From Escherichia coli (GTDB taxonomy: Bacteria; Pseudomonadota; Gammaproteobacteria; Enterobacterales; Enterobacteriaceae): a stretch of DNA of 64,000 nucleotides. A program made the translations under genes and the position numbers. A model generated the notes under the pieces. The model did no database searches and was not told the origin of the DNA. It was given only the letters and a program-made list of their open reading frames with translations. The stretch lies in assembly GCF_003018255.1 (NCBI RefSeq), contig NZ_CP027440.1, one strand, 5' to 3'. Positions 38,568 through 40,525 of the stretch are shown piece by piece (positions within the stretch are counted from its first letter, which is position 1; each line of letters opens with the position of its first letter).

Positions 38568-39467
38568 ATGAAACCCGACGCACACCAGGTTAAACAGTTT
38601 CTGCTCAACCTTCAGGATACAATTTGTCAGCAGTTGAGCGCCGTCGATGGCACAGAATTTGTCGAAGATAGCTGGCAGCGCGAAGCTGGCGGCGGCGGAC
38701 GTAGCCGGGTGTTGCGTAATGGTGGTGTTTTCGAACAGGCGGGTGTCAACTTTTCACATGTCCACGGTGAGGCGATGCCTGCTTCCGCCACCGCTCATCG
38801 CCCGGAACTTGCCGGGCGCAGTTTCGAGGCGATGGGCGTTTCACTGGTAGTGCATCCGCATAATCCGTATGTTCCCACCAGCCACGCGAATGTGCGCTTT
38901 TTTATTGCCGAAAAACCGGGTGCCGAACCCGTCTGGTGGTTTGGCGGCGGCTTCGACTTAACCCCTTTCTATGGTTTTGAAGACGATGCTATTCACTGGC
39001 ACCGCACCGCCCGTGACCTGTGCCTGCCATTTGGCGAAGACGTTTATCCGCGTTACAAAAAGTGGTGCGACGACTACTTCTACCTCAAACATCGTAACGA
39101 ACAACGCGGCATTGGCGGGCTGTTCTTTGATGATCTGAACACGCCAGATTTCGACCACTGTTTTGCCTTTATGCAGGCGGTAGGCAAAGGCTACACCGAC
39201 GCTTATTTACCAATTGTAGAGCGACGTAAAACGATGGCCTACGGCGAGCGCGAGCGCAATTTCCAGTTATATCGTCGCGGTCGTTATGTCGAGTTCAATC
39301 TGGTCTGGGATCGTGGCACACTGTTTGGCCTGCAAACCGGCGGGCGCACCGAGTCTATCCTGATGTCAATGCCGCCGCTGGTACGCTGGGAGTATGATTA
39401 TCAGCCAGAAGATGGCAGCCCGGAAGCGGCGTTAAGTGAGTTTATTAAGGTCAGGGATTGGGTGTAA
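38568..39467 (+). CDS. hemF: Oxygen-dependent coproporphyrinogen III oxidase HemF (299 aa)
   Basis: ORF-track begins at GTG 38565; the ATG at 38568 ([18 protein letters not shown]...) is the likely start, 3 nt after the amiA stop. Confidence 0.95.
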
Positions 39468-40525
39468 CTCCCTCCCCCCCATTCCCGCATCCGCTGATGC
39501 AGCGTCAGTGACGGCTTCTCGGCAAACAGCTGCTGGTAATCCGTGGCGAATTGCCCCAGATGCCAGAATCCCCACTGCATGGCGGCGTCTTTTACCGTTG
39601 TGCTTTGCGACCAAGGGCTTATCAGTTCGCGGCGTACGGCGTTCAGGCGAATGCGTTTCAGCCACGCGTTTGGGCCAATGCCTAAAATAGCGTGAAACGC
39701 GTTTTGTAGCGTGCGGCGGCTGACATGCAGTTGATTACACAAGTCCAGCACCGTCACTGGTTCGGACATGTTTTCCAGCACATATTCACGGGCGCGGGAA
39801 AGCAATCGACGGTAACTCTGATGACTGATGCTTTCCGCCGTCACCATTGGCTGCGCTTCTTCCAGCATCGCCCCCATCGCCATTAGCAAATTATCCCCCA
39901 GCACTTTTCGCACTGCAGGCTGATGGAGATTTTCCGGGTTTTCGCAAAACGTCGCCAGCGCCTGTTGGACAAAGCCCCACAGAGCGGCTTTATGCTGCTC
40001 TTTCACTTCCAACGCCGACTGGCTACGCAGCATATGTAATACCCGATCCGGATTATGCAAAAAGTTAGCCTGACGAGTGATGACATCTTCAGAAAGCACT
40101 ACGCCAAGGATCGTGTAATCGTCCGGCGTACTTAATTCAAACTCGGTTCCACCGGGGCGCGTCGCTATTTCTGCGCTTCCCAGACATTGCGAACCGATAA
40201 ATCCCTGCTCACCGCGCGTCGCCGGAATGCCAAACCAGAACGAGTTCGGCCAGACCAGGCACGACTGGCGCAGCGCCAGACCGGTGTATTCACGGAAAAC
40301 CTGAATATCATCGAGTAGAATTTCCGTAAATTCACCATGAAACTTGCCCGGATGCAGCTGATCGTAAATCTGCTGCCAGGCGGTAATTGTCAAAGCATGT
40401 TCATAGACATCCGTTGTCTGTCGTTGATGAACATTATCCACTTCGACCTTCGGCGTGAGCTTCAGGTTTTCGGGTAAGGGTTCATGATAAAGATGGTGCA
40501 AATTGGCTGTACGGGTCTTTTTCAT
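39401..40525 (-). CDS. eutR: AraC-family activator of the eut operon EutR; ORF is 374 aa here, 24 aa longer than the 350 aa I recall as canonical
   Basis: ORF-track; [23 protein letters not shown]...; runs through the expected stop position at 39473..39475 and overlaps the hemF 3' end by 67 nt. Confidence 0.85.

Follow-up and report, generated by a model that had tools for sequence, protein, structure and literature searches.

EutR, the AraC/XylS-family activator of the ethanolamine utilization (eut) operon of Escherichia coli and Salmonella, is canonically a protein of 350 amino acids. Its gene is the last one in the operon, located after eutK and convergent with hemF; in E. coli BL21 and MSB1_7A, eutR is annotated as a 350-aa gene that is separated from hemF by a gap of 5 nt. 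In the window (the whole 64,000-nt stretch of E. coli DNA analyzed here), eutR occupies the same genomic position, downstream of eutK and convergent with hemF, as follows from the order of the open reading frames (ORFs) and from the RefSeq annotation of identical and similar loci. However, the canonical stop codon and the 5-nt gap are replaced in the window by a glycine codon, an extension of 24 residues and a 67-nt overlap with hemF (Table 1). The analysis described below leads us to conclude that this arrangement very probably reflects a genuine, heritable stop-loss of eutR that recurs in a C-rich tract and yields a tolerated, near-neutral C-terminal tail.

The eutR-hemF junction

The translation of the window eutR frame reaches the sequence LHQRMREWG and continues into the 24-residue tail. 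A preceding reading of this DNA, made from the sequence only, had given 350 aa as the usual length of EutR and had described a frame of 374 codons with GGA instead of a stop after codon 350, an extension of 24 codons to a TGA, and a resulting overlap of 67 nt with hemF. The sequence and the ORF list bear out this description, and this length agrees with the 350 positions of the NCBIfam model as well as with the 350-aa proteins of BL21 and MSB1_7A. On the plus strand, codon 351 reads TCC and is embedded in ctccctccccccc, in a C-rich tract, as that reading had also reported; its proposal that a single C-to-A change would restore a TGA 5 nt past the hemF stop is exact, given that BL21 and MSB1_7A, when aligned with the window, have TCA at this position, that is, TGA on the eutR strand. 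The sole relevant difference in this alignment is the majority sequence CTCACCCCC versus CTCCCCCCC in the window. The alignments and the single nucleotide polymorphism (SNP) tables, which we built over the 1,961-nt hemF-eutR segment, show that the canonical and window alleles of the eutR stop differ by exactly one base, namely position 39475, where the plus strand carries C in the window and A in the majority.

Because this position lies 8 nt beyond the hemF stop, the variant leaves the hemF protein unchanged. A scan of positions 39200..39800 for promoters and terminators detected no promoter-like or terminator-like element at the junction; the variant is therefore outside any recognizable terminator hairpin of hemF or eutR.

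In the mechanism that we propose, a single A-to-C transversion on the plus strand (T-to-G on the eutR coding strand) would convert the UGA stop to GGA, so that ribosomes would continue for 24 codons on the strand opposite the hemF 3' end before halting at a tandem UGA-UAA stop. The product would comprise EutR residues 1-350, with the AraC-type DNA-binding domain intact, followed by an uncharged tail rich in Gly, Ser and Leu that is probably unstructured. Programmed stop-codon readthrough or recoding was considered separately and is ruled out by the DNA itself, which contains GGA rather than a stop at codon 351.

Table 1. Features of the eutR-hemF junction and of the adjacent eut operon (positions in the window)
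Feature	Positions	Strand	Description	Basis
eutR reading frame	39401..40525	minus	374 codons and stop, versus canonical 350	ORF list
Codon 351 of eutR	39473..39475	minus	GGA (Gly); TGA stop in most E. coli	alignments and SNP tables
C7 homopolymer run	39474..39480	plus	made by the A-to-C change from canonical C-A-CCCCC; length variable in related genomes	
eutR tail codons 352-374	39404..39472	minus	antisense translation of the last hemF codons	
New eutR stop, tandem TGA-TAA	39398..39403	minus	TGA 39401..39403, in-frame TAA 39398..39400	sequence and ORF end
hemF (oxygen-dependent coproporphyrinogen oxidase)	38568..39467	plus	convergent with eutR	ORF list and RefSeq annotation of identical sequence
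hemF stop codon	39465..39467	plus	TAA	sequence read
eutR/hemF overlap	39401..39467		67 nt, at the 3' end of hemF	
eut operon, eutK to eutS	40571..57031		contiguous; maeB beyond	
eutB ORF	42647..44023	minus	458 aa	
C-run at the eutB 3' end	42687..42690		CCCC, versus CCC in JNE23-011	
eutH	45435..46661			
Segment between eutH and eutG	46662..46977		about 316 nt without a long ORF	
eutG	~46978..48165			

Occurrence and origins of the 374-residue form

A 221-nt query covering the junction produced matches in 5,424 of the 5,426 complete RefSeq genomes of E. coli. Using exact queries with 65-nt haplotypes, we identified the A-to-C allele in at least 24 of the 5,426 genomes (about 0.4%); these queries matched 2,841 of the 5,426 genomes, and hence the carrier counts are lower bounds. 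The window-type tract is present in 18 complete genomes (16 of the '746' haplotype, JNE23-011 and JNE112863), the S2-type tract in two (S2 and R7), and a BL21-like type with the stop-loss in four. In the carriers, RefSeq names the product as a 374-aa "HTH-type transcriptional regulator EutR" encoded by a gene that overlaps hemF, and none of these genes is flagged as a pseudogene. The 374-aa proteins, namely WP_001561822.1 (from JNE23-011, in which the hemF-eutR DNA is 100% identical to that of the window), WP_456283984.1 (JNE112863), WP_001520986.1 (746, SCU-109 and K_EC180), WP_103566052.1 (S2) and WP_001469063.1 (PK5 and 2017.03.02CC), share with the window the same stop-loss substitution and the same frame of the 24-residue tail. 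Where the lineages have a different hemF haplotype underneath, one or two residues of the tail differ from the window (PASG, PSFG, N-to-K). Comparison with the junctions of other E. coli genomes, which the sequence-only reading had suggested, thus reveals 374-aa EutR proteins with the same tail elsewhere, and the allele is therefore a known minority allele, not an anomaly of the window genome. It is already catalogued in RefSeq under several protein accessions and is an ordinary natural polymorphism.

An exact look-up in a collection of 15 billion proteins located the 374-aa EutR of the window on 663 public contigs (NCBI, ENA, Logan and JGI), the 746-type protein on at least 1000 contigs, and the S2-type protein on 332. 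Swine, dog, gull, cattle and human isolates are all represented in the carrier clades, from several continents and many laboratories. Full-text literature searches for the EutR stop-loss or the 374-aa form found no paper on either. Within the 746 group, all 27 of the 27 complete genomes that match the 151-nt haplotype at 99% or better lack the stop (16 with C7 and 11 with C6), whereas the nearest stop-keeping genomes are set apart by a further marker, and their annotation shows the usual arrangement of the two genes. This pattern is one of apparent clade-consistent inheritance of the allele, not of sporadic error.

These observations bear on the alternative under which the true base at 39475 is A, EutR is a normal 350-aa protein, and the C results from a base-calling or assembly error. 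The site indeed lies in a C-rich tract, and the 3' end of eutB in the window has a 1-nt insertion in a C-run compared to the two closest complete genomes, so that a degree of homopolymer error in the assembly is conceivable. However, the change at 39475 is a substitution rather than a run-length error, the same two closest genomes carry it, the exact EutR sequence of the window recurs across all the above public sources, and the stop is absent clade-wide in the 746 haplotype group; we consider an error extremely unlikely. Where the sequence-only reading had left the choice between a base-calling error and a genuine stop-loss, it is the genuine variant that stands, with the same allele found in independent complete genomes. 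The description of the site as a deviation in a homopolymer context holds for the C-rich context but not for a change in run length as the error, since it is a substitution that lengthens the C-run. An artefact of sequencing or assembly was rejected, since no fewer than 24 complete genomes and hundreds of contigs have the variant.

The stop-loss allele is found on four different local haplotypes. DETEC-S792, the nearest non-carrier of the window, matches it at all variable sites between 39227 and 39758 except 39475. Similarly, 39475 is the sole position at which PK5 departs from BL21 between 39273 and 40525 (the eutR start codon). The S2-type haplotype shows 75-88 differences from the other sequences compared and has markers of its own 20 nt upstream and 7 nt downstream of the variant; the S2-type 65-mer is one base off many genomes, including ATCC 11775, NU14 and JJ1887, and in ATCC 11775, the only one of these that was fetched, the differing base is 39475. 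Positions 39434 and 39536 distinguish the 746 type from the window, and between them the two share about 100 identical nucleotides around the variant (39435..39535). The flanking markers argue for independent mutation on three of the four haplotypes, and the A-to-C change appears to have arisen independently at least three times and probably four. The count reaches four provided that the window and 746 types arose separately; alternatively, these two could be connected by a short patch of gene conversion.

Recombination is frequent in E. coli, and the identical segment common to the window-type and 746-type alleles could be taken to indicate that a single ancestral mutation was spread between the lineages by homologous recombination instead of arising repeatedly. 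With the lineage markers of the S2 type at -20 and +7 and those of the BL21-like type at -53 and +7, however, such a transfer could have brought in less than about 27 nt and less than about 60 nt, respectively, and over the rest of the gene both types agree with the local non-carrier haplotype. Spread from a single origin therefore seems unlikely. What is mildly notable about this polymorphism is only that one and the same stop codon has been lost or bypassed repeatedly and independently.

EutR with a C-terminal tail

By every family criterion tested (model, domain and gene position), the protein predicted from the window is EutR. Its residues 1-350 align end to end with positions 1-350 of the 350-position NCBIfam equivalog model for EutR, NF007522 (789.7 bits, against a cut-off of 319), and differ from BL21 EutR only at N168S, M309T and S335A. 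The AraC-type double helix-turn-helix domain is present (Pfam HTH_18 at 262-341, E = 1e-18, and HTH_AraC at 251-290 and 301-343). The departure from the canonical protein, which has 350 aa with a stop after REWG, is in the length (374 aa, with GGA in the place of TGA); this extra length is a polymorphism rather than a family criterion, and PGAP still names the product EutR.

The tail (residues 351-374) lies beyond the EutR family model as well as beyond the end of the Pfam DNA-binding domain (341/343) and starts 7-9 residues after the last helix of that domain. It consists of 6 Ser, 4 Gly, 4 Leu, 2 Thr, 2 Asn, 2 Ala, 1 Ile, 1 Tyr, 1 Gln and 1 Pro residues, without any charged ones, and varies by lineage (PSSG, PASG or PSFG, and N or K at one position). 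We take the Myc-His tag on the EutR protein used in published experiments to be C-terminal, as in the pBAD/Myc-His vectors. This Myc-His-tagged EutR is reported to complement a eutR deletion and to support growth on ethanolamine, which suggests that the tail is tolerated as well. By this analogy, the stop-loss allele is probably close to neutral, and we infer that the 374-aa EutR is stable and active.

A loss of function, whereby the tail would destabilize EutR or block DNA binding and the carriers would lose ethanolamine utilization, might be surmised from the shifted frame at the end of eutB in the window (last 8 codons), a possible sign that selection on the operon is relaxed in this isolate. 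Nevertheless, the window has open reading frames for all 17 eut genes, eutB included, and JNE23-011 has all of them annotated as intact; the allele persists across large, geographically wide clades; and both the position of the tail past the last DNA-binding helix and the growth on ethanolamine supported by the tagged protein speak against this possibility, which we regard as very unlikely. A tolerated, near-neutral tail remains the preferred reading. Apart from the protein, the 3' end of the eutR mRNA is a known target of MavR and RNase E, and altered ribosome occupancy near this target is a conceivable effect of the allele.

Several features of the surrounding operon were noted. The eut operon of the window is contiguous and contains no prophage between eutA and eutB, the site where K-12 carries the CPZ-55 prophage. 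A segment without a long ORF separates eutH from eutG (Table 1). Over the 17.5-kb segment that covers the eut operon (40526..58000), the window differs from JNE23-011 by six SNPs (43634, 44009, 45504, 47522, 51135 and 54283) and by the indel in eutB; over this segment, an identity of 99% or more to the window is reached by only two or three of the 5,426 complete genomes, and the window represents a distinct strain of a rare lineage, different from both JNE23-011 and JNE112863. The extra C in the C-run of eutB shifts the reading frame of the final 8 codons, giving a protein of 458 aa that ends in TKRGGRSVTVLLMTRR versus 453 aa ending in TKRAGDPSLFF. The exact 458-aa EutB was found by look-up on only 6 public contigs and is thus rare, unlike the eutR allele. 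This insertion, a true run-length change, could represent either a genuine rare variant or a homopolymer artefact, and is presumably the other homopolymer deviation in the eut locus to which the sequence-only reading had referred.

The C-rich tract and its other variants

The last codons of eutR are TGG GGG TGA, and the plus-strand A of the stop accordingly has a C on either side and then C5. Transient primer-template misalignment is known to yield substitutions towards the adjacent base (dislocation mutagenesis). The recurrence of the stop-loss could be explained along these lines: with the stop embedded in the tract CTC-A-CCCCC, transient misalignment at replication would favor copying of the adjacent C, and gain or loss of a C in the same tract would give rise to other EutR tails.

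Such forms are indeed observed. A C6 tract is present in eleven swine ETEC genomes whose haplotype is otherwise identical to 746 over 1,961 nt; in ETEC1748 (L011, 1262..2335), it results in a 357-aa EutR with the tail EGVTPNP (WP_000753710.1), a protein that the exact look-up located on at least 1000 public contigs. In S1-CAM-01-C (L015, 1177..2271), the A is kept and one extra C (TCACCCCCC) causes a frameshift across the stop, resulting in a 364-aa EutR with a 14-residue tail (WP_255862039.1). In both cases the canonical stop is also lost through mutations in the same C-rich tract, but these are frameshifts (C6, or an extra C after the A), in contrast to the substitution in the window, and therefore their tails are read in other frames and are unrelated to that of the 374-aa protein. 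Given that the length of the C-run is also variable, as the 357-aa and 364-aa forms show, the eutR stop lies in a mutation-prone C-rich tract. The genomes of ETEC6334 (C7) and ETEC6333 (C6) have 5,142,647 and 5,142,642 bp, respectively; the difference between them may be slippage or an assembly error.

The same transversion on three or four haplotypes, each type in hundreds of assemblies, along with the other mutations of the tract that likewise replace the C-terminus of EutR, might be viewed as adaptive convergence, i.e., positive selection of the stop-loss in some lineages (swine ETEC, oedema-disease strains, and some human or animal commensals or ExPEC). Under this scenario, the tail would alter the activity, stability or partner binding of EutR and so retune ethanolamine use and EutR-dependent virulence regulation. 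We deem such selection quite unlikely: the frequency of the allele is low (about 0.4% of the complete genomes, as a lower bound); the tail is dictated by the antisense strand of hemF and differs between lineages, with nothing to suggest constraint; and the tails of 24, 7 and 14 residues share nothing, to which a mutation-prone site is a better fit than selection. Equally improbable is a reading in which the tract acts as a hot spot for the repeated formation of EutR C-termini (350, 357, 364 and 374 aa) and at least one of them is selected in particular lineages, e.g., in swine ETEC and oedema-disease strains, through the stability or activity of EutR or through what becomes of the eutR mRNA at its 3' end. 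Consequences for ethanolamine-dependent colonization of the gut and for virulence regulation would be conceivable if the tail changed the activity of EutR, of which there is no indication.

With regard to annotation and quality control, the 374-aa EutR should stand unflagged because it is a real minority allele, and should not be 'corrected' or marked as an error or a pseudogene. It illustrates, on a small scale but clearly, how a stop codon surrounded by a homopolymer-like tract can be lost repeatedly, and how one base change turns a 5-nt intergenic gap between convergent genes into a 67-nt overlap.

The variation of the eutR tract resembles that of phase-variable homopolymer contingency loci in that the length of the C-run varies (C6 versus C7) on otherwise identical haplotypes. 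The C6 and C7 forms, which occur on an identical 1,961-nt haplotype and are each found on at least 1000 contigs, may represent stable sublineages or rapid switching, or may in part reflect assembly error, and the tract is not a demonstrated phase-variable switch. Unlike the contingency loci, the eutR run is short (6-8 bases) and, rather than switching the gene on and off, changes only the C-terminal tail: in all the EutR length forms residues 1-350 are kept and the tail alone differs.
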